Shown here piece after piece: positions 2,706 to 33,289 of a stretch of DNA of 64,000 bases. The stretch spans positions 1 through 64,000 of IMG/VR virus record IMGVR_UViG_3300020195_000020; one strand, written 5' to 3'. Origin of the DNA: a virus. Numbering within the stretch: position 1 is the first letter of the stretch; each line of letters starts with the position of its first letter. Below the pieces are notes generated by a model that ran no database searches, was not told the origin of the DNA, and was given only the letters and a program-made list of their open reading frames with translations. A program made the position numbers and the translations under genes.

Positions 2706-3380
2706 TTGGCACGCAAGAAACGCGCGACCAAACGCGCGGCTAAGGCTAAACGCAAGCCTCGGGCCGCCGCGCCCCCACCACCACCGCCGCCCCTTCTCAG
2801 CGTGAGCGCCGTCGCGAAAGCGGTCGGCGTCAATCGTCGCACTGTGGCCGAGTGGCGCGACAAAGGTTGCCCGCTCACCACGCTCAACGCCGTCATTCAA
2901 TGGCGGAACGAGAATCTGCGGTCCGATCGCCAGCCCATCGAACAGCGTGATGGCGGCGCCAGCTCGATGACTCGGCTGCACGAGGCCCAGGTCCAAGCCA
3001 ATATCCGGAAGATCAAAGGCGACACCAGGCTCCGGCACCAGCGTCTGTTGAAGGAAACCAACAAGCTGGTGGAACGCGTGTCGGTGGTGCGCGAGGTCGC
3101 CGAGCTCGTGGTCCGAGTGAAGGAGCGCATTCTGGCGCTGCCCGAGGAGCTCGAGAACCGCTTCGCGCCAGAGGTCCGCCTGCAGCTCAAGGAAGACGTC
3201 GACGAATTTGCCCGGCAGTTGCTGTTCGAAATGGCAACCTACGAGATTCTGGGCGATCCCACCGATGACTTGATTCTCGCCTCGGCCGATCTGATCCGCG
3301 CGAAGCGCGAACGGGCCGCGGCCAAGTCGACCCAGCCCCCGCCGGCAGAAGCCGGCTCCGAGACCGCGTCCAATTCATGA
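2706..3380 (+). CDS. Terminase small subunit (Nu1-like)
   Basis: N-terminal HTH (VSAVAKAVGVNRRTVAEW..KGCP), coiled coil and LV....V motif. Overlaps the terL start. Confidence 0.85.
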   Translation: MARKKRATKRAAKAKRKPRAAAPPPPPPPLLSVSAVAKAVGVNRRTVAEWRDKGCPLTTLNAVIQWRNENLRSDRQPIEQRDGGASSMTRLHEAQVQANIRKIKGDTRLRHQRLLKETNKLVERVSVVREVAELVVRVKERILALPEELENRFAPEVRLQLKEDVDEFARQLLFEMATYEILGDPTDDLILASADLIRAKRERAAAKSTQPPPAEAGSETASNS

Positions 3381-5362
3381 CCGCGTTCATCGTCGTTGCA
3401 GCCATGTTGCTGTCCGAGTCGTTTCGCCAATTCGCGCCCGATCCGCCGGTTCGCACGCTGGATTGGTGCTTGCGCGAGATCAAGAACGACCAAAGGCGCC
3501 CCTACAGCCATAGCGAATACCCGCACCTCGGCGCCCCTGGCGGGCCGATGGACGCCAACGACGATCCGACCATCCGCCGGATCGTTGAAATGTTCGCCAG
3601 CCGCCTGGGGAAAACCTTCTTTGGCCAATGCGTCCAGTTGAAGGCGGCTGACACGGCGCCGTGCCCGATGATGCTGGCCGCGTCGGTTGAGAAGCTGGCG
3701 CTAGACATCACGGCCCGCACCTATCGCATGGCCGAGCAATCGCGCAATCTGCGGCGCCAGCTTATGCCGGAGCGATTGCGACGCAAGGACCAACTCGAGT
3801 TTGAGAGTTGCCGGTTGCACCTGGCGTGGTCGCGGTCAGTCAACACTTTGGCTGACAAGAACATCAAAATCGGTCACGCTGCTGAACTCGACAAATGGAC
3901 TCGGGCACAGACCAGCACCGAAGCCGAGCCGCTGTTTCTCTTCCTGGAGCGGTTCAAAGACTTCGTGAATTACAAGGTCGTGCTAGAGAGTACGCCTACG
4001 GTCGCCGAAGTCTCTCGCATCGAGGCGTTGCTCAAGACGTCCAGCAATTGCCGGTTTAACGTGCCATGCCCGAATTGCCAACGGTATCAGGTATTGCACT
4101 TTGCCCGGCTTAAATGGGACCGCCTGCCCAACGGTGAGCACGATGTCGACGTCGCCGGTCGGACAGCCCGTTATCATTGCGACCACTGCAATGAGCCCTG
4201 CCACGATCACCATCGGGCCTGGATGATGCGCCGCGGCGTCTGGCTCCCGCATAACTGTCAGATCGATCATGAGAAGGCGCTCGAGGTGGCGGAACGCCGC
4301 AATCAGCAGTTAAAAGAGGGCACCTTCTCGGACGAGCCGGCCGGCCGCTATTGGAAGCACGGCTACGCGATCGGCGAGCCGACGCGCGATGGCAGCGTCG
4401 CCGGGTATCAACTCTCCAGCCTTTACGCGCTGTCGCTCACCTGGGGCCGGATTGCCGAGGAGTGGATCAGCGTCTACCAGGTCCCGGTCAACCGTCGCAA
4501 CTTCATCAACTCCTGGCTCGGGGAAACCTTTCGGGAGAAGAAACGCAGCGAGAAGTGGGAAAGCCTGGCCCGCCGGCTGATCGTGCAGATCCCCCGCGGA
4601 ATGGCGCCACTCTGGGCGTCGCTTCTGACCATGGGCATCGATCGCCAGAAGGACCATTACAAGTGGGTCGTCGACGCGTGGGGCCCGGGCGGCATGTCCC
4701 ACACGATGGACTATGGTCGCGCGGACGACCTGCGATCGATCCTCAAAGAACAGATTCTGAGGAAATGGCAGCACGCCGACGGCGGCACGATTGAAGTCGC
4801 GCGGGCGATGGTCGACGCCGGCTTCGACCCCGAGGAACCTTACACGGTTTCCAAGGAGTGCCTCGATGCCTCGCCGCGGATTGTCTTACTCTGCTGCCAC
4901 GGCTCGAGCCGGCCGCTGCAGGCGCCTTTCAAGATCACGGAATTAGACGAGCGGACCATCATGCCCGGTCTGCCCTACGTGCTGGTCGATGGCGATTGGA
5001 CGCAACTCGGACTCGAGCGCCAGCTCCACGAGCTGCGGCCCGGCGAAAGCGGCGCGATGTCGGTCTTCGAGGCGGAGCCGGCCGAGCATGAAGCCTTCTT
5101 CCGCGAGCTGCTCAACGACGAGCCGATCTGGGGAACCGATCGCCACAACAATCCACAGTGCAGTTGGGACCGGATCACCGAGGCCGATCCCAACGATCAC
5201 CGCGACTGCCGCAGGTACTCGACGGTCGGCCAACTGATTTACACCGAGGGAAAGCCGATTCTCAGTCGCGACCAGGAGCTGGCCAAACAGATGCCCCAGG
5301 TCACTGCCCCGCGGCTCATCACTCCCGATGGCCGGCCGTTCATGGCCGCGCCACGACGTTAA
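3377..5362 (+). CDS. Terminase large subunit, lambda GpA family
   Basis: Walker A variant ASRLGKT, ESTPT, CPNC...CDHC zinc motif, FINSWLGE, nuclease motifs MGIDRQ and NDHRDC..Y. Confidence 0.95.
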   Translation: MTAFIVVAAMLLSESFRQFAPDPPVRTLDWCLREIKNDQRRPYSHSEYPHLGAPGGPMDANDDPTIRRIVEMFASRLGKTFFGQCVQLKAADTAPCPMMLAASVEKLALDITARTYRMAEQSRNLRRQLMPERLRRKDQLEFESCRLHLAWSRSVNTLADKNIKIGHAAELDKWTRAQTSTEAEPLFLFLERFKDFVNYKVVLESTPTVAEVSRIEALLKTSSNCRFNVPCPNCQRYQVLHFARLKWDRLPNGEHDVDVAGRTARYHCDHCNEPCHDHHRAWMMRRGVWLPHNCQIDHEKALEVAERRNQQLKEGTFSDEPAGRYWKHGYAIGEPTRDGSVAGYQLSSLYALSLTWGRIAEEWISVYQVPVNRRNFINSWLGETFREKKRSEKWESLARRLIVQIPRGMAPLWASLLTMGIDRQKDHYKWVVDAWGPGGMSHTMDYGRADDLRSILKEQILRKWQHADGGTIEVARAMVDAGFDPEEPYTVSKECLDASPRIVLLCCHGSSRPLQAPFKITELDERTIMPGLPYVLVDGDWTQLGLERQLHELRPGESGAMSVFEAEPAEHEAFFRELLNDEPIWGTDRHNNPQCSWDRITEADPNDHRDCRRYSTVGQLIYTEGKPILSRDQELAKQMPQVTAPRLITPDGRPFMAAPRR

Positions 5363-12754: not shown

Positions 12755-13348
12755 ATGCCGCGGATGAGCACACTGCCGAACCTGACCATCACGATCGGAA
12801 TGTCGGATGGTTTCTATCAATTGGTCAGCGGCGATCGGCTTTGGAATATCTACGCGCGGGCGGCGCTGGCGCACCAATTGATCAAGCACCACGAGACCCG
12901 CATTCCCAAGCACTTTCGGCTAGGGGCTCGTGGCACTTACCAGTACCACCGCCGTCGCAAATCGACGGAGCGGAAGAAGGTCAAGTATTGGCGCAAACCG
13001 CCGAACCTTGACTTGGTCCGCAGCGGCCAGACGAGCCTGGCCGTCATGCGGAAACGAACGATCACGTTTGCCGGTTCATTCGGTGGCCCGAAAGGGGCCG
13101 GCACGTTGCAGGGGCGGCTGAATATGTTCCTGCCCTACCCGTTGCGGCGCAACGACAAAGTAGGCGGCATTTCGCCCGAGGACATCGCGGCTGAGATCAC
13201 GTCGACTACCGACCAAGAGGCTCAGGAGATCGCGGAGGGCTATCGAGACGACCTCGCGCACCAAATCAACAGCTACCACGGCCCGATGCGCGTGCAGCGG
13301 CCCGGCGGCGGTGTCAACGGACTGGTCAACGCCCTGATGGGGCGCTAG
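12755..13348 (+). CDS. Basic virion morphogenesis/tail completion protein (putative)
   Basis: Arg/Lys-rich with an LVRSG motif, in the neck cluster. Confidence 0.55.
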   Translation: MPRMSTLPNLTITIGMSDGFYQLVSGDRLWNIYARAALAHQLIKHHETRIPKHFRLGARGTYQYHRRRKSTERKKVKYWRKPPNLDLVRSGQTSLAVMRKRTITFAGSFGGPKGAGTLQGRLNMFLPYPLRRNDKVGGISPEDIAAEITSTTDQEAQEIAEGYRDDLAHQINSYHGPMRVQRPGGGVNGLVNALMGR

Positions 13349-15709: not shown

Positions 15710-16414
15710 ATGTCAGCGTATTTACTCTTCGTCGAAGGCGCGTCGCCCAACACCGCCAACGACTTGCCAAACCAACTGGGCATCGGGCAAATCGTCGGCC
15801 GCGGCGAGCCGGGGCTCCTCTGGGTGCATTGCCAGGCTGGCCCGGGCGGCAAGCCCGGCATGCTGGGCGGCTGGTGCGTTCACGCTGAAACGCCCACTTT
15901 CAATCCGGCCAAGCAAGAGTGGCGCCGTGCCCCGAGCGAGAACTTTTGGGTCGGCCAGTGGCGCGATCGCCCGCTCACGCCCGAGGACATCGTCCGGCAA
16001 AACGTCGGCGCAGTCTGCTACAGCGTGCCGCTGGAAGATGGCCAGAAGTGGCTGATTCCCGCCGCGCGGTGGCTGCCGCACCTCTGGACCATGAACAAGG
16101 AGCTGAAGCGCATCCGCGTGCCGGTGGCCGAGTATGTCGAGTTCTGTGAGCAGGCCGACGTCGTCTTCCAGGCGTTTGTGAAGAATGCCGCCGGCGGCCA
16201 ATTCGAGATCGAGTGCGAGTGGGAGTTTGTCTGCCGGGCGATCGAGATCAACTATCGGCTGGCGCCGGAGATCATCGCGACCCTGAAATTGATCGGCGAT
16301 CGCACGGGCAGCTCGATCCTCACGGCCGTGATCGAGTGGGAAGGAATCACCAAGGTGGTCCAGGAAAAAAAAAATGCGGAGTTAGCCACGACCGACGCTA
16401 CGCCACCTACGTGA
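15710..16414 (+). CDS. Tail assembly chaperone (gpG-like)
   Basis: Directly upstream of the tape measure gene. A10 slippery run at 16365-16374 near its 3' end. Confidence 0.75.
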   Translation: MSAYLLFVEGASPNTANDLPNQLGIGQIVGRGEPGLLWVHCQAGPGGKPGMLGGWCVHAETPTFNPAKQEWRRAPSENFWVGQWRDRPLTPEDIVRQNVGAVCYSVPLEDGQKWLIPAARWLPHLWTMNKELKRIRVPVAEYVEFCEQADVVFQAFVKNAAGGQFEIECEWEFVCRAIEINYRLAPEIIATLKLIGDRTGSSILTAVIEWEGITKVVQEKKNAELATTDATPPT

Positions 16415-23772: not shown

Positions 23773-26223
23773 ATGGTCGATAAGCTCTACACACAGCATG
23801 ACCGCCTGGTCACGCCCAATGACCGCCTCACAGCCAGCTCAGTCTGTTGCTGCCCGAGTTGCATCATCTGCGAGGATTCCTTCGAGCGATCGAACAACAG
23901 CAACATCAACACCGGCGCGCCCATGATCTGGGCGGGCGGCACGAGCGACTTCACGATCAACGGCAATCGGCTGCGGACTGTCGTTAGTGGCGCGGCAGTT
24001 ACTGGCTGCTCGGGCGATCGCGTCACCGTCTCGATCAAGCGAACGAACTCTGGCGGCACCTACACCACGAGCCAGGCGAGTGTCAAACTCGGCTCGGTCA
24101 TTGCGACCATCACGTTCCCGTCCAGTGCCGGCGAGCCCGGACGGATTGCCATCACGGGCGGCGGCGTCAACGTAGGAACCGTCAACTACGTTGATGTCCC
24201 TGAGATTGTCAATGAGGCCCAGATCACACTCTGCGTGCGGCAGATTCGCCCCTACAACGACACCGAGATCGGCTTGCTGGGCGTTCACCTATACTCAGCC
24301 CATGGCAATAAGACCGTCTCGGGGTACATCGGCTCGACGGCGTTCGATCCCGACGCGGGCACCTATGGCACGTCTGGCCTCGGAACTGGCACGATCGACA
24401 CCACGCATAGCCAGATATTCTTCATCGACTTCAAGGTGCAGCACCTACGAGGCGCCGAAGGGGACGACTACGAGGCGTGCCCGCAGTGCCGCCCCCGGCC
24501 TTGCTACGCCAGCTCGGACGGCGGCTTCGACCCGCTGGGGACCACGAGCGAGGGCAAGTGGACAGTCCTCAGTGGAACCTGGCCAGGCGGTCCCATCTCC
24601 ACCGTCGCCTACTCAACGGTCCAGAGCGATGCCCTGAAGTTCGACGGCTACGCCAGGGGCGGGTTCATCGAGTGCACCGTTGCTCACTACTCGACCGACA
24701 CGAATACCCGCATCTATATGACGCGAGCTGGCGCCGGAAGCGCGCTATCCGCTGCCGACTACGTTGAGCTGGTTCCTCCGCGTGGGCACCAGCAGGGCTG
24801 CGTGCGGTTGATGCGGCAAGCCAGCGTACTCGCGGCCGTGCCGTGGGAAGATGTGGACTTCCCATCGGATATTTATTGCATCTACGGCGCCGGGGTTTGG
24901 TATGTCGCGGTATCGGGAGCCCCTGGCATTCTGATCGGTCCACTTAGTCTCCAGCCATTTGAGCCGGCCATCGGCGTCGGCGCGGCGCCTGTGTCTGGGG
25001 GCGGCATTGAGATTTACGGCGCTACGATCGGCCACACAGCCGAGGATGGCTATTCCTACTGCACGAGGCACACGGCGGCTTGCGCCGTCTATGACACGTC
25101 TGGGCTCCTTTGGACGGACGCCGCCGCCACGCTGCCCAACTGCCAATGGAACGTACTCAGCGGGAGCTGGTCTTGGGTCGACACAGACTCGACCGGCTAC
25201 GTGGCACCGACCACAACCAGCGCCAACGCCTATATCCAGCGGCAGCAGCCTTACCCCACACTCGCTGCTGGCGGTTGCTTTGAGGCTACGATCGGCTTCA
25301 GAAATGTGAGTGACATTGAGGACCTGTTTGGTGCGGGCCTCAAGTGGGGATGGGACGGTGGGAATAGCCGCGTCGTGGTCAGGTTCCAGGACCCTGACAC
25401 CTACCTCCCGCTCGCGCCGCGAGGTATGGAGTTGACGTGCGCCGGCAACAAGAGCGTGTATACAGCCGAGCTATGGCTAGGCGGCGCGAAGGTTGACGAG
25501 GTGGGACCCTTCAGCTTGTGCTGGGGCCTGGACTTCAGGATGAAAATCTGCCTGGGTCAGGGCGTGGTTCGGGTCTCGGATGCACAGAACGGAATCACGC
25601 TGTTCCGTCACGCCACGGATGACTTCGGCAGCGACCCATACTGGGGTGTTGGCGTGGAGGATATGCCAGCCGGCGTCAAGTTCCGCGTTGCTGTAATGTC
25701 CTTGAATCACACGCGCGATCAGCAGTTCGACTACCTTCCGTCAACGATGCCCAGCAACTGCGAGATGGCGTTCACCCCGTACATCATCGCAGGCAGTGTC
25801 TGCGCTGGCAGTGACAACCTGCCAACCATGCTGAAGATCGTCACTACAGGGATCACGTCCTTTGACCCCATGTCGTGTAGCTGCGACGACGCCAATGGTA
25901 TCTTCTTCCTGCTGCCGGACTACATCGCCACATACGCCGGCAGCGGTCAAGCCCGCTACAGCTTTCCGTTACCGCCCAATGACCCAGCGACTTGCACGCG
26001 AACGGAAGTGCAGCTCGTAGCCGTGATCGGCACGAACTTTGTCTACGCCGGCTTCGAGGGCGTGCTGGTGCCTGGGTTCGCTCAGGAGTGGCAGTACAAC
26101 GACTTCTCGACGCCACCCTACTCGTGCCTGGAGGACCTCGTTGACCTCAGCCTCCCTCCCATCAATTCAAGCGTTAGCTGTGACACCTCGTCCAGCACCC
26201 TCAAGGTAACGACGATCCGATGA
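23773..26223 (+). CDS. Cys-rich tail-tip/receptor-binding protein (putative)
   Basis: Start moved to ATG 23773. CCCPSC..C.D.F.R N-terminus and repeated W.VLSG.W lectin-like modules. Confidence 0.65.
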   Translation: MVDKLYTQHDRLVTPNDRLTASSVCCCPSCIICEDSFERSNNSNINTGAPMIWAGGTSDFTINGNRLRTVVSGAAVTGCSGDRVTVSIKRTNSGGTYTTSQASVKLGSVIATITFPSSAGEPGRIAITGGGVNVGTVNYVDVPEIVNEAQITLCVRQIRPYNDTEIGLLGVHLYSAHGNKTVSGYIGSTAFDPDAGTYGTSGLGTGTIDTTHSQIFFIDFKVQHLRGAEGDDYEACPQCRPRPCYASSDGGFDPLGTTSEGKWTVLSGTWPGGPISTVAYSTVQSDALKFDGYARGGFIECTVAHYSTDTNTRIYMTRAGAGSALSAADYVELVPPRGHQQGCVRLMRQASVLAAVPWEDVDFPSDIYCIYGAGVWYVAVSGAPGILIGPLSLQPFEPAIGVGAAPVSGGGIEIYGATIGHTAEDGYSYCTRHTAACAVYDTSGLLWTDAAATLPNCQWNVLSGSWSWVDTDSTGYVAPTTTSANAYIQRQQPYPTLAAGGCFEATIGFRNVSDIEDLFGAGLKWGWDGGNSRVVVRFQDPDTYLPLAPRGMELTCAGNKSVYTAELWLGGAKVDEVGPFSLCWGLDFRMKICLGQGVVRVSDAQNGITLFRHATDDFGSDPYWGVGVEDMPAGVKFRVAVMSLNHTRDQQFDYLPSTMPSNCEMAFTPYIIAGSVCAGSDNLPTMLKIVTTGITSFDPMSCSCDDANGIFFLLPDYIATYAGSGQARYSFPLPPNDPATCTRTEVQLVAVIGTNFVYAGFEGVLVPGFAQEWQYNDFSTPPYSCLEDLVDLSLPPINSSVSCDTSSSTLKVTTIR

Positions 26224-26636
26224 AGCGTTGCATCCCAGTAGTTGTCAACAAGCAACTCACCTGCCTCGGGTGCGGTATCCCGTTCTCGGGTCCGTTCGCC
26301 ATCTCCGAGGCCGAGATGATTGCGATCGGCAGCGACCTCAACAAGATTCACCGGCCGTGCGGTCACGTAGCTATATTGCGAGTTGCGCAGAGCGCCAACC
26401 TACACGCGGCGAATCAAGGGATCACGCAGTCGGCGCCACCGCAACCGAGAGTGGACTACGCCGGGTGCGTTCATCGCGGTGAGCCGTCGCGGCTAGAGGA
26501 ATGCCCGACCTGTAGCGGCAGGGTGCAGGTCAAGGTGTTTAAGTGCGCCGTCCACGGCGAGTGCCAGCTCGAAGCCAAGATCGGCGGCATCAACGTCTGC
26601 GGCAGTAGCTGCGAGCAGTTCAGTCCGCCGACCTAA
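26220..26636 (+). CDS. Small Cys-rich protein at the end of the tail operon
   Basis: CVHRG...ECPTC......VFKC.VHGEC........C..C pattern, ATGA overlap. Confidence 0.7.
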   Translation: MKRCIPVVVNKQLTCLGCGIPFSGPFAISEAEMIAIGSDLNKIHRPCGHVAILRVAQSANLHAANQGITQSAPPQPRVDYAGCVHRGEPSRLEECPTCSGRVQVKVFKCAVHGECQLEAKIGGINVCGSSCEQFSPPT

Positions 26637-26865
26637 ACTCGCAGCCGCAGACCTGACAGCGGTTCAGGTAGGTCGACGGGGCGACGCGGATCGAGGATGC
26701 CTCGCAGTATGGGCACGGCTTGCGAGAGAATTCCGGAACCGACGCGATGACGGGAGCGGACTTGGCCGCTGGCTCATCGCCCGGCAAACGAACGAACAGC
26801 ATCGCCGCCATCACGATTGCCGCGAAGGCTCCAACGATCCAGATTAGGGCCGCGCCAGGGTTCAT
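26620..26865 (-). CDS. Small membrane protein with a C-terminal Zn ribbon
   Basis: ATG overlaps the stop of the DUF1559 gene. N-terminal TM segment, CPYC...CQVC. Confidence 0.7.
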   Translation of the reverse strand: MNPGAALIWIVGAFAAIVMAAMLFVRLPGDEPAAKSAPVIASVPEFSRKPCPYCEASSIRVAPSTYLNRCQVCGCEFRSAD

Positions 26866-28037
26866 GGGATGTCGGTTTCGCTTGGTATGACTGTTGACCA
26901 TGGCGGGCCGCAGAGAGCCGGCATCCCGCTTTGACCAGCGTACATGGTTTCCGTCCCGTGACTCGACATGAGGATCGCGTAGATCGAGTACCTGATGTCC
27001 TCGCCGATAAACCTTACCGAGCCATCGGCATAGGCCACATTGAACCCGCCTGGATGGTTGCTCGCCGGCCGGGCGAACCACCACGCTTTAATATCGGCCG
27101 CAGTGACGGCACCAACTGCCGGCGGCAATATCGGCATGCGGTTGACTTGAATCGGCGGAAGATCAGGGCCAGCAGGGGGAACGCCCCAGAGCGCTCCCAG
27201 ACGCCACTCTTCGTCGCCGTAGTTGCGCCAGGTCATGTTCCAGTTTACCGTCACCGGGATGCCCAGCGTCTCGCCAATCTCGGCGCCGCGATTCTCAGCG
27301 AGCATGATCGTCCGGCTCACGCCATCCTGCCTGGTGAGCGTCGCCGGGTCCATTTTGACGAACGGCTTCTTGTTGCCCGCGGAGCCCGCGTATGCCTGAT
27401 TAAAGCAGAGCCCGTTCGCGGGCCAGTCGAGCGGGATTGATTGCGCGTTGTCCACGTCGGCCATCCCGGCGTTCGGGAAGTAGTTCATGGCCGGGCCTTG
27501 CAGCGTGGTTACGGAATCGCTGGGGCACAGCAGGACTTCGATCGGTCGGTTCGGCAGATTGCCCGTCATGCGATACTGCGTATAGATGTCGTTGCGCTCC
27601 ATATAAGGCAGCAGAGCCGGCACCCAACCAACGTACCCAGGTGTCGGCACGCCGGTCGGATTTTCACGGGCGTAGACCAACCCAGGAAAGTAGTCCTTGC
27701 TGGTGCAGACCTGGATCATCGCCATCGCGGTCTGCCGGATATTGTTCGTGCAGGTCGCGCGCCGGCCGGCCTCGCGGGCTCGTTGCACGGCCGGAATCAA
27801 CAGGCCCATCAGCATGGCGATAATGGCGATCACAACCAGCAACTCGACGAGGGTGAAGGCGCGCCGTTTCATTTTGTTACCTTGAATTGAAGTGCATGCC
27901 CGGCGAAGCGTTGCTCGCACCCAATTCGAGAGGTCCATGCCGGACTTCTCGGCTTCGGCAAGAAACGCTTGCTTCTCTTCCTTGGTCAGGCGCAGCTCGC
28001 AGCGTGCGGTGCGCTCAGGTCGAATCGTTGTGGCCAT
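26862..28037 (-). CDS. Ribbon-helix-helix domain fused in frame to a DUF1559 prepilin-type protein
   Basis: aa 1-55 are RHH-like (CELRLTKEEK..F...AE..GM.LSNWVR..L). Then KRRA|FTLVELLVVIAII..L.GLL.PAVQ.AREA.RR..C.NN.RQ and C-terminal HPGGFNVAYADG (H-X9-DG). Alternative start at 27872. Confidence 0.9.
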   Translation of the reverse strand: MATTIRPERTARCELRLTKEEKQAFLAEAEKSGMDLSNWVRATLRRACTSIQGNKMKRRAFTLVELLVVIAIIAMLMGLLIPAVQRAREAGRRATCTNNIRQTAMAMIQVCTSKDYFPGLVYARENPTGVPTPGYVGWVPALLPYMERNDIYTQYRMTGNLPNRPIEVLLCPSDSVTTLQGPAMNYFPNAGMADVDNAQSIPLDWPANGLCFNQAYAGSAGNKKPFVKMDPATLTRQDGVSRTIMLAENRGAEIGETLGIPVTVNWNMTWRNYGDEEWRLGALWGVPPAGPDLPPIQVNRMPILPPAVGAVTAADIKAWWFARPASNHPGGFNVAYADGSVRFIGEDIRYSIYAILMSSHGTETMYAGQSGMPALCGPPWSTVIPSETDIP

Positions 28038-28039
28038 GC

Positions 28040-28073
28040 CGTACAGTGTACGTACGACGCGAACTTGATACAA
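28040..28073 (-). promoter_or_regulatory. Leaderless-type sigma70 promoter with an overlapping palindromic operator
   Basis: TTGTAT-17-TACACT-7 nt-ATG. The palindrome CGTACA-N-TGTACG (28040-28052) covers the -10. Confidence 0.7.
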
Positions 28074-28103: not shown

Positions 28104-28307
28104 CTATTGGCTATACCCGAGCTCGCCGCCGGCCGGCTCGCGGGGATCGTCGCCGCTCTTCACCTGGTTGATAATGCGCACCAGGGCGCGATCGCCAATA
28201 TGCGGCGCGTGGGCCCGCAAGATCCGCTCGACCCGGCCATGCTCACGCTCTAGCGCCGCGTCGACAGCTTGATCGACTGCCGCTTGAACTTCCTCGTTGG
28301 TGGCCAT
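28104..28307 (-). CDS. Small helical hypothetical protein
   Basis: 67 aa with a GGAGG RBS. Confidence 0.6.
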   Translation of the reverse strand: MATNEEVQAAVDQAVDAALEREHGRVERILRAHAPHIGDRALVRIINQVKSGDDPREPAGGELGYSQ

Positions 28308-28376: not shown

Positions 28377-29369
28377 TCAACGACTGAGGCCGGCTTTTCG
28401 GCCGAACCAGCGGCGAACCAGTGCGATCGTGCGGCGTGTAAGTCCAATTCGTGGCAATTCTTGGGTGACTGCTGGCAAGCCTGGCCTGGGAAGTATTTTT
28501 GCCGCCGACTGCTGTCCGCAGATGGTGGGGTCGAGGTACTTTCGGGTCGTCTTGCCGTCCTCGTGTCCGAGCATCAATTGAGGATCGAGTCCCAGCCGCT
28601 TGCCGTGCGTTGCGGCGCTCTTGCGGAGACAGTGAAAGCGGAATTGGCGACTGCTCGGCAGGCCCGCGCGGCGCTGCACTTCGGCGTAGCGATAGTAGAT
28701 GTGGCTCTCGGAAAATGGCCAAGGAAAGACTTCGTCGCCCTTGGAGAAGGTCCGCAGCCGCCGCAGTAGCGCCACCGTCTCGGCATGCAGCTCGTAGGTC
28801 ATGTCTTTGCGTTTGCCTTTGCGGAATTCGGCCGGCACCCGCACCCAGCCGCCGTCCAGGTCGAACCATTCCCATCGCGATTTACGCAGCGGAGAAATCC
28901 GCTCGGCGGTGTCCCAGCCGAGGTTGTGCAAAGTCTCCCACCAGAGGCCCGCCGGCACGGGACCAATGTAGCCTGGCGTGGCGCGGCAGGCGGCAAACAG
29001 CGACTCGAGTTGCGGCATGGTCCAGGCCCGTGGATCGCGATCGGGCTGCACTTCCGGGTCGACGTCGGGCCATTCCTGCAGAAAGCCTTTGCGGCAGGCA
29101 AATCGCCAGATGGCCAGGAGCTGCGATCGCTCCTTGTTGGCGCTGGATGGGCTCAGGCCGCGGCCCATCATCCACGCCATGAGCCGCGAGACGTTGTCGT
29201 CGGTTAGATCGACGAGCAATGCGTCGCGCTGGAGAAAGGTGCTGAAGTTTCGCACCGAGAACGCGTACAGCCGGCGAGTGTTGTCGGCGCGGCCGCGCAA
29301 CTTCAAGGGGATGTACTGGTCCTCAAAAAACGACTTTAACGACTGTCCAGGACAAATCATTGCGTTCAC
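28377..29369 (-). CDS. int: Tyrosine recombinase/integrase
   Basis: Catalytic residues R (TAERISP), K (RKGK), HxxR (FHCLRK), H (LGH) and Y (TTRKYLDP). N-terminal SAM-like domain. Confidence 0.92.
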   Translation of the reverse strand: MNAMICPGQSLKSFFEDQYIPLKLRGRADNTRRLYAFSVRNFSTFLQRDALLVDLTDDNVSRLMAWMMGRGLSPSSANKERSQLLAIWRFACRKGFLQEWPDVDPEVQPDRDPRAWTMPQLESLFAACRATPGYIGPVPAGLWWETLHNLGWDTAERISPLRKSRWEWFDLDGGWVRVPAEFRKGKRKDMTYELHAETVALLRRLRTFSKGDEVFPWPFSESHIYYRYAEVQRRAGLPSSRQFRFHCLRKSAATHGKRLGLDPQLMLGHEDGKTTRKYLDPTICGQQSAAKILPRPGLPAVTQELPRIGLTRRTIALVRRWFGRKAGLSR

Positions 29370-29617: not shown

Positions 29618-29825
29618 CAAGTTTGCCGAATCGCACGGGACACAGTCGCAAATCTCTGCGGAATTCCTTACGTGCTCCGCGCAATCGGCCAGTGAAAACG
29701 ATCGACGAGTTGATGGCGGCGCCAGAGTAGCCGCGCAGCGAAGTGTGAAAAAGAAAATCGGCGGGGCCGGTGCAAGCCGGGCGGCGCTGCTAACGAGCCG
29801 TTTGCAACCCCGCCGATTTTCTTGA

Positions 29826-29853
29826 TTGAAAAGTCTAATTCTTGCCTTACAAT
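29826..29853 (+). promoter_or_regulatory. Putative leaderless promoter of the HTH gene
   Basis: TTGAAA-16-TACAAT-7 nt-ATG. The spacer contains AAGTCTAA. Confidence 0.6.
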
Positions 29854-29860
29854 TGGGGCC

Positions 29861-30100
29861 ATGTCAATGTCCATCGGAACACTGCTAACGACCCAGGAAG
29901 TCGCTGACCTGTTAGGGGTTAATACCTCTCGGGTGAGCCAGCTCGTGGGTGAGGGACGGATGCGGCCCAAGCAACGGGTCGGATCCGCAATGCTGTTTGA
30001 ACGCGACGATGTGATAGCTTTCTCGAAAATACCGCGGGCGACCGGTCGCCCGAAGGATTCTGCAAAAAAAGTTCGAAGGTCTATTGCAAAGTCTAAGTGA
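29861..30100 (+). CDS. HTH_17/MerR-like DNA-binding protein (excisionase or repressor)
   Basis: LLTTQEVADLLGV...RV.QL...G and GRPK tail. Divergent from int. Confidence 0.85.
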   Translation: MSMSIGTLLTTQEVADLLGVNTSRVSQLVGEGRMRPKQRVGSAMLFERDDVIAFSKIPRATGRPKDSAKKVRRSIAKSK

Positions 30101-30985: not shown

Positions 30986-31291
30986 ATGCACTCGACTCAG
31001 CAGTTTCTCAATTTCGAAGGAGCGATTCCCCTGGCCCGCGCGACCGACCATGAGTCGAGCCACGCGGCGGCCGAGCGGAAGGAATCCAGCGGCTGCGCCA
31101 AGCAAGACCGGGTGCGGGTGCTGGAATCCCTGCGGAAACTCGGCAAAGCGGTGACCAGCAAGCAACTCGCGGCCGTGATGGGCGTCGACCGGTACATGAC
31201 CGCCAGGCGGTTACCGGACCTGGCCAAGATGGGCCTCGTGAAGTGCGAGGCCTACGAAGGCCGCGAGCTGATGTGGAGTGCGAAGGAGTAG
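30986..31291 (+). CDS. Winged-helix DNA-binding protein
   Basis: AR.TD..SSH.AA motif followed by T.KQLA........RRL.DL...GLV. Confidence 0.75.
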   Translation: MHSTQQFLNFEGAIPLARATDHESSHAAAERKESSGCAKQDRVRVLESLRKLGKAVTSKQLAAVMGVDRYMTARRLPDLAKMGLVKCEAYEGRELMWSAKE

Positions 31292-32740: not shown

Positions 32741-33289
32741 ATGCAATCTGGCAACACCGCGGCGCCGCTCCGGATGGTCGAGCTGCGCAATATCGAGATC
32801 TTCGATATTCCAGAAATCCGCCGCATACACCGGCTGTGCTTCGAGTCGATCACGTCCGAAGCCGAGCTCATGACCGAGCTCGCGGCGCCCAACCGCTGCT
32901 GCATCGCTCTCGATGAGCCGGCCCCGCGGCTGACCCTTTCCATGCGGGGCTTCCTGGTCTTCGCCCACACGCCCAACGTGCTGACGATCACGGCCATGGC
33001 TGTCTCGCCCGAATATCAGCGGGCTGGCTACGGCGCCATGCTGGTCGGCCACCTGATGCACGCGCTGGCCGAGGGAACCTGGTCGCGGATCGAGGCCTAT
33101 GTGCGCGAGAGCAACGACCGCGGGGCCTTGTTCCTGCAGCGGCTGGGGTTCCGCGCGGCCCGACTGATTCCCGGGCACTTTGCCAACCCGGTGGAAGACG
33201 CCTACCGGATGGTCTATCGCAAGCCGGCCGTGGTGAAACCGGTGGTCCGGCCCGCCGACGATGCCTGCGGAGAGGAGGGCGGTTCGTGA
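32741..33289 (+). CDS. GNAT acetyltransferase, RimI-like
   Basis: AVSPEYQRAGYG, VRESN..A-like, F.QRLGF and EDAY.M motifs. Confidence 0.9.
   Translation: MQSGNTAAPLRMVELRNIEIFDIPEIRRIHRLCFESITSEAELMTELAAPNRCCIALDEPAPRLTLSMRGFLVFAHTPNVLTITAMAVSPEYQRAGYGAMLVGHLMHALAEGTWSRIEAYVRESNDRGALFLQRLGFRAARLIPGHFANPVEDAYRMVYRKPAVVKPVVRPADDACGEEGGS

Follow-up and report, generated by a model that had tools for sequence, protein, structure and literature searches.

The DNA stretch analysed here (64,000 nucleotides, hereafter the window) corresponds to positions 1-64,000 of a virus record of 74,145 bp in IMG/VR (IMGVR_UViG_3300020195_000020), which features direct terminal repeats and is rated complete. It belongs to a temperate, uncultivated phage with a host among the Planctomycetota. 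Most genes of this phage are carried on the plus strand, with a short block of minus-strand genes located between the early region and a group of large plus-strand genes ending at position 26636. This block consists of a tyrosine integrase gene, an open reading frame (ORF) of 67 amino acids (aa), a frame of 391 codons and a gene of 81 aa. The 391-codon frame, with which this report is concerned, runs from ATG 28037 to TGA 26864-26862 on the minus strand, and within it a putative DNA-binding domain of the ribbon-helix-helix (RHH) type continues without a stop codon into a prepilin of the DUF1559 family, as an earlier note on this DNA had described.

The N-terminal segment of the frame (27873-28037, minus strand) comprises 55 codons without a stop of their own, with the core of the predicted NikA-like RHH domain at residues 9-47. 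Scanned on its own, the segment (residues 1-55) matches the NikA-like family PF21983 over residues 9-43, with 28.6 bits relative to a cut-off of 27, a score that falls to 24.4 bits, under the cut-off, inside the whole 391-aa protein. The weaker family matches of this segment (DUF6290, MobC_2, RelB antitoxin, MobA and MbpA) all point to the RHH fold. An AlphaFold2 model displays the corresponding beta-alpha-alpha pattern, with an extended stretch at residues 11-17 and helices at residues 19-32 and 36-52 (pLDDT 71-86), followed by a low-confidence linker (residues 53-60) and the long pilin helix (residues 63-114). In the ESM Atlas, the RHH segment has as its neighbours stand-alone proteins of the NikA-like, Arc and TacA kinds, 51-63 aa in length (TM-score 0.72-0.78). 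Foldseek with the whole model returned weak rows only, to NikA, TacA, AtaR and ParG, and a sequence search of the PDB with the RHH segment gave no match. Codon usage over RHH codons 1-44 yields log-odds of +8.0 bits in frame, as opposed to -22 and -19 bits in the other two frames.

The remainder of the frame (26862-27872, minus strand) is a DUF1559 prepilin-like gene of 336 aa with an ATG of its own. Residues 56-80 match the N_methyl domain (PF07963, 30.8 bits, cut-off 21.2; also TIGR02532), residues 85-348 match DUF1559 (PF07596, E 1.9e-28) and residues 325-344 match the HX9DG motif (TIGR04294, E 4.9e-10). The protein reads ...RRACTSIQGNK-MKRRA↓FTLVELL across the junction (the arrow marks the predicted cleavage site), and the features of a class III signal peptide, i.e. 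Ala at -1, Phe at +1, Glu at +5 and then a hydrophobic stretch of about 20 residues, are all present in KRRA↓FTLVELLVVIAIIAMLMGLL. Cleavage is predicted before the Phe encoded at 27857-27855, so that the leader would be the 5-aa peptide MKRRA if translation starts at ATG 27872, and a 60-aa peptide with a folded domain in the 391-aa form. Prepilins are targeted through signal recognition particle (SRP) and Sec, their leader is in the cytoplasm, and the peptidase that cuts them after Gly or Ala has its active site at the cytoplasmic face (PMC10191384). The cleavage on the cytoplasmic side just before the Phe that the earlier note invoked fits this type IV pilin biology. The 336-aa form is found as a public representative at 100% identity, and its closest homologues share 53-42% of residues across their entire length. 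Homologues all begin at the position of the internal methionine (M56), with the pattern M(R/K)xx[AG]FTLVELL. Relatives of DUF1559 proteins occur on more than 240 viral contigs, PHROGs includes "pilin" morons, and an accessory gene of this kind, associated with lysogeny, is the best reading of the pilin of this phage.

The eight residues that link the two domains (residues 48-55, CTSIQGNK; 27873-27896, minus strand) are encoded by DNA (ACT TCA ATT CAA GGT AAC AAA ATG, including the pilin start codon) that is AT-rich relative to the 62% GC genome and resembles non-coding sequence in its codon usage, with log-odds of -4.1 bits in frame for the last 11 codons including the linker. This DNA contains a Shine-Dalgarno (SD)-like AAGG at 27883-27880, the final G of which lies seven bases ahead of ATG 27872. 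Motifs of this type are found ahead of 20 of the 35 gene starts of the phage (57%), compared to 19 of 220 internal in-frame ATGs (8.6%). The pilin thus keeps an SD and ATG of its own at the very position where all homologues start, which does not support the interpretation in the earlier note. The CAAGG-N7-ATG arrangement at the junction shares its geometry with the TAAGG-N7-ATG ahead of the gene at 15710 and closely resembles the TAAGGG-N7-ATG ahead of the gene at 12755, and in both cases the TAA is the stop codon of the preceding gene. As CAA at 27884-27882 is one transition away from TAA, a single TAA-to-CAA change would give the present frame. The other two frames also stop at the junction, at TAA 27879-27877 (4 nucleotides before the ATG) and at the TGA of an ATGA overlap, so that a single insertion or deletion near the GGG run at 27899-27897 would give the fusion as well. 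To judge by its sequence, the linker resembles the remains of an intergenic spacer with stop, SD and start. A hairpin masking the pilin SD was also considered and rejected (z = -0.5).

The exact 391-aa product is present on 4 contigs from JGI/IMG and Logan in a collection of 15 billion proteins, the longest of 29,572 bp. The ESM Atlas also holds the 391-aa form. For the 336-aa call there are 4 contigs (JGI/IMG and ENA), among which the 74,145-bp record itself is the longest. An uninterrupted frame in different assemblies argues against a one-off assembly error, which is unlikely. Two 55-aa "members" (P0161 and P0162) of the P0004 protein cluster proved to be unrelated phosphatase-like fragments, an apparent indexing oddity.

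The fusion, and also the adjacency of RHH and pilin genes, are unique to this phage in everything searched. The earlier note had called for a search for other fusions of RHH and DUF1559 domains, and none was found. With the 391-aa protein as query, a HMMER search against 1.84 billion representatives retrieved 211,958 DUF1559 relatives at E<=0.001, and the top matches all start at M56. Proteins P0034, P0060 and P0070 have N-terminal extensions, which turned out to be low-complexity upstream read-through and not RHH domains. A word-indexed search with the RHH segment, covering the length classes 215-685 aa and 30-97 aa, yielded nothing, and no close homologue of this segment was found in 5.8 billion clusters. 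A set of 160 loci of viral, genomic and metagenomic origin gave 174 prepilin-like frames, and no RHH domain was detected in frame with, or near, any of them (80 viral loci found by an alignment query, and 80 on genome contigs). Open upstream extensions of at least 45 aa are common in the GC-rich genome loci, and none of them is an RHH domain. Neither viral contigs searched with a single protein nor a Pfam scan of the ORFs immediately upstream of 33 other prepilin genes provided a further case. Among 401 Planctomycetota genomes, the approximately 118 matches to PF21983 include no prepilin fusion, and the seven of these matches in long open frames that were examined are not prepilins. A metagenome scan returned DUF1559 relatives of about 30% identity only and no fusion. 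Relatives of the phage itself, sought by means of its integrase, its 661-aa ORF (3377-5362, taken as a candidate large terminase) and the DNA pattern of the junction, were not found.

Long leaders with a predicted folded domain do exist elsewhere among DUF1559 prepilins. A contig of a Planctomycetaceae metagenome-assembled genome (JBJTRH010000481.1; locus L113, 3779-5002, plus strand) encodes a 408-aa GYF_2-N_methyl-DUF1559 protein with the GYF_2 domain at residues 5-54 (43 bits, cut-off 25.8), and its ATG is preceded by a strong AGGAGG. This architecture is common to 7 database clusters (P0154-P0160, alignment A4) of 406-412 aa. Their N-terminal parts are 61-100% identical, with the GYF domain conserved, a variable 22-aa linker, an invariant [AG]↓FTLVELL and no internal start. 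Here the "leader" amounts to about 77 aa, far longer than those described so far (PMC4471445), and a literature search found no paper pairing GYF with a prepilin. This family shows that a predicted folded cytoplasmic domain ahead of the prepilin motif is viable and selectable.

The earlier note placed the RHH start on a leaderless, autoregulated transcript, by analogy with the cI repressor of lambda, whose mRNA is leaderless, with transcription starting at the start codon. Promoter-like hexamers (TTGTAT-17-TACACT; 28045-28073, minus strand) are indeed located as described, but they match the consensus at 7 of 12 positions only, and the window contains sites that match at least this well at a density of 1.85 per kb per strand. 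They were not listed by a promoter scan, the rules of which do not cover Planctomycetota promoters. The candidate operator directly upstream of the RHH ATG, the palindrome CGTACA-N-TGTACG (28040-28052), is likewise in place and perfect. The window contains 180 perfect palindromes of 6+6 bases with 0-4 spacer bases, and one would thus be expected in the 66-nucleotide gap about 14% of the time. Since promoter and palindrome are both within chance, the leaderless autoregulated transcript is conjectural, i.e. possible but unsupported.

The tyrosine integrase gene (28377-29369, minus strand; PF00589, and phrog_1 with E 1.6e-33) marks the minus-strand block as the lysogeny-proximal end of the phage. 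Between integrase and RHH lies the 67-aa ORF (28104-28307, minus strand), which has an SD-like motif and no family assigned. Just beyond the integrase, a HTH_17/excisionase-like gene (29822-30100, plus strand) and a gene for a MarR-like winged-helix protein (30986-31291, plus strand) are found, so that the RHH protein is not the sole candidate repressor. The earlier note saw no cI-like repressor in the window, and no repressor of the HTH_3/S24 type was found among the window ORFs scanned. A GNAT acetyltransferase gene is located at 32741-33289 of the window (plus strand; PF00583, E 2e-10). A role as antitoxin against GNAT toxins is common among RHH proteins of the NikA/TacA type. A TacA-like antitoxin reading, for which the Atlas neighbours and the GNAT gene might speak, was rejected, with the GNAT gene 5 kb from the RHH segment and on the opposite strand.

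Downstream of the pilin, the 81-aa gene (26620-26865, minus strand) encodes a small membrane protein with one predicted N-terminal transmembrane helix and a Cys4 zinc-ribbon-like tail (CPYC...CQVCGC), for which Pfam and PHROG scans gave no family match. Its start overlaps the pilin stop as ATGA, in agreement with the translational coupling noted earlier. Many phage-borne DUF1559 genes are also followed by a small conserved protein (...WKPRDFYLVYKMWTDEEYRNVN), analogous in position to the transmembrane/zinc-ribbon gene, with an N-terminal hydrophobic segment in full-length calls and no Cys motif. This protein overlaps the pilin stop by 14 nucleotides in loci L038, L042, L043 and L050, and shorter calls of it lie downstream of the pilin gene in loci L019, L036, L067, L072, L073 and L077. 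Chromosomal DUF1559 genes are often followed instead by a lipoprotein with a CarboxypepD_reg-like domain. A Cys-rich ORF of 138 aa (CPTCSG...CAVHGEC; 26220-26636, plus strand) is convergent with the transmembrane/zinc-ribbon gene, with an overlap of 17 nucleotides at their ends, and the same 9-mer, CAAGGTAAC, precedes its ATG and that of the pilin. Near the left end of the genome, a DUF932 protein is encoded at 140-1144 of the window (minus strand; PF06067, E 2e-39).

The reading that we favour, with about even confidence, is that of a recent run-on fusion that gives rise to two isoforms, the longer of which is probably cut by the prepilin peptidase of the host, and which is not a proven regulatory device. 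An ordinary two-gene arrangement would have come first, with an RHH gene followed by a prepilin gene with its own ribosome-binding site. The RHH gene would then have lost its stop codon, or would never have had one once the pilin cassette arrived, and in the simplest history the single frame would have formed by a one-nucleotide event or at the recombination joint of the incoming cassette. Translation from ATG 27872 would provide a canonical prepilin and would probably be the main source of pilin. By analogy with the minor pilins of prophages, this prepilin may alter the type IV filaments of the host or exclude competing phages. Translation from ATG 28037 would provide the long RHH-prepilin, with an N-in signal anchor and the RHH domain in the cytoplasm. 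No prepilin peptidase gene was found in the phage, and any cleavage would thus need the host enzyme, which would most likely clip the long form after Ala60 and free an RHH protein of about 60 aa. Since the peptidase would split the two parts again, loss of the stop codon may be nearly neutral, and this would account for a fusion that has been kept with no additional adaptation, e.g. loss of the internal start.

Several points weigh against this reading. Cleavage of a 60-aa leader by prepilin peptidase has, to our knowledge, been shown for no protein. The RHH start codon (ATG 28037) has no SD-like motif ahead of it, as is also the case for 43% of the gene starts of the phage. The GC content at third codon positions is 0.68 in the RHH core compared to a phage mean of 0.80, a measure which by itself, unlike codon log-odds, cannot tell the frames apart over the RHH segment. 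The contigs with the 391-aa call may not be independent of one another. No divergent relative of the phage was found from which conservation or dN/dS could speak for or against selection on the fusion. Prepilin leaders described so far range from less than 10 to about 30 aa (PMC4471445), a range that includes the 5-aa leader of the 336-aa form and that a leader of 60 aa exceeds.

The model of the earlier note is that of an evolved device, in which the RHH protein would be an autoregulating lysogeny repressor, translated from a leaderless mRNA, tethered to the membrane and released by host prepilin peptidase, such that it would report on pilus biogenesis. We consider this rather unlikely. The fused ORF on several contigs, a topology and an Ala↓Phe site that fit (PMC10191384), the perfect palindrome abutting the RHH start, the absence of a HTH_3/S24-type repressor from the scanned ORFs and the domain-bearing leaders of the conserved GYF_2-prepilin family are all compatible with such a device, and the shared frame and the fitting topology are the parts of the proposal that stand. 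An evolved switch is nevertheless not indicated, because the fusion is a singleton in all searches and the linker is spacer-like. The internal SD and ATG that have been kept suggest, together with this linker, a recent accident. Moreover, promoter and palindrome are within chance, and the HTH_17 and MarR-like genes by the integrase represent alternative regulators. DUF1559 prepilin-like proteins are very numerous in Planctomycetota (211,958 representatives), so that the peptidase of these bacteria is presumably always active and its action would carry little regulatory information. Alternatively, only the canonical prepilin may be made, from ATG 27872, and the RHH segment may be an untranslated or decaying remnant disrupted by insertion of the pilin cassette. 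This is unlikely given a frame that is intact from ATG to junction, a segment above the Pfam cut-off with a beta-alpha-alpha model and a codon-usage score of +8 bits in frame versus about -20 bits out of frame, and a size that equals that of complete stand-alone RHH proteins. A remnant would be consistent with the one public gene-calling source that has the 336-aa form only, with the missing SD before ATG 28037, with third-position GC below that of the phage genes and with the lack of a close RHH homologue in 5.8 billion clusters.

Two further explanations concern the joint itself. In a metagenome-assembled record such as that of the window, the fusion may be an artefact of sequencing or assembly of two true genes, with a TAA at 27884-27882 or with a 1-nucleotide difference elsewhere, e.g. 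in the GGG run at 27899-27897, by which the TAA at 27879-27877 or the TGA of the ATGA overlap would come into frame, and any of three single-nucleotide changes would indeed yield a textbook two-gene layout. This is improbable, as the identical 391-aa product is found on 4 contigs besides the 74-kb record and the error would have to recur across assemblies. Very improbable, in our view, is a long form that stays uncleaved as an anchored one-component regulator of the ToxR/CadC type, with a cytoplasmic RHH domain, one transmembrane helix and the periplasmic DUF1559 part as a sensor. The canonical class III signal peptide (Ala-1, Phe+1, Glu+5) and a linker of just 8 + 5 residues speak against it, and a sensor role is not known for any other DUF1559 protein. 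The domain order and the predicted topology nevertheless match the ToxR/CadC class, and a folded domain beside the cleavage site could conceivably block access of the peptidase.

Prepilin leaders are regarded as short, disposable peptides. It is tempting to speculate that in this phage a regulator serves as a prepilin leader, and that host prepilin peptidase, by cutting a long form that is made and inserted N-in, acts as the maturation protease of a DNA-binding protein, a proposal that we regard as possible though doubtful. If true, this protein would define, together with the GYF_2-DUF1559 proteins, a class of prepilins in which a functional cytoplasmic domain takes the place of the leader and is either set free by the peptidase or held by it at the membrane. 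Prepilin peptidase would gain a second role in the release of cytoplasmic effectors, and a single ORF would let the phage supply a regulator together with a surface-modifying pilin. Should the fusion instead be a tolerated accident, it would represent a natural test of the leader length and structure that the peptidase accepts. The GYF_2-prepilin family suggests that the question of leader function applies more widely in Planctomycetota. Unlike that family, the RHH fusion displays neither conservation nor loss of the internal start, and it rests on a single phage lineage.

Comparison with known systems places each half of the protein on familiar ground. Residues 56-391 correspond to a typical full-length member of the DUF1559/SBP_bac_10 prepilins of Planctomycetota, with the short, basic MKRRA leader, the long alpha1 helix (residues 63-114) and HX9DG. 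DUF1559 homologues differ in that their leaders of about 5-20 aa contain no RHH domain, whereas the gene described here is phage-borne and has an RHH segment of 55 aa ahead of it in the same frame. Pilins like FimU that are encoded by prophages (P-FimU of Pseudomonas F10-like phages) enter host pili and block pilus-dependent phages (PMC12952977). The likeness to P-FimU lies in a pilin-like accessory gene of a temperate phage, here located beside the integrase, and by analogy it suggests a plausible route to filament change or exclusion. P-FimU itself belongs to another pilin family and host phylum and has no fused DNA-binding domain. Small RHH regulators, such as the N-terminal domain of NikA, Arc and Mnt of phage P22, and TacA/AtaR, share the predicted fold and the size of the N-terminal segment and include viral examples. 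In contrast to these stand-alone proteins, the RHH segment of this phage, for which DNA binding is putative, lacks a stop codon and runs on into a membrane protein, and no toxin or relaxase gene is adjacent. Membrane-tethered transcription factors (ToxR/CadC, and those subject to regulated proteolysis) have the same predicted topology, with a protease site at the cytoplasmic face. They differ from the present case in that release would here fall to prepilin peptidase, with a class III signal peptide as the substrate, and we know of no transcription factor that is released in this way. The closest parallel is provided by the GYF_2-DUF1559 proteins, in which a predicted folded cytoplasmic domain also precedes a canonical [AG]↓FTLVELL. 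These are conserved in 7 clusters and have no internal start, in contrast to the RHH fusion, which is known from a single case and has both an SD and an ATG within its frame. As far as can be told from its domains, the C-terminal 336 aa of the protein are an ordinary DUF1559 prepilin and the N-terminal 55 aa an ordinary small RHH protein, and what is new is their joining via a class III signal peptide.

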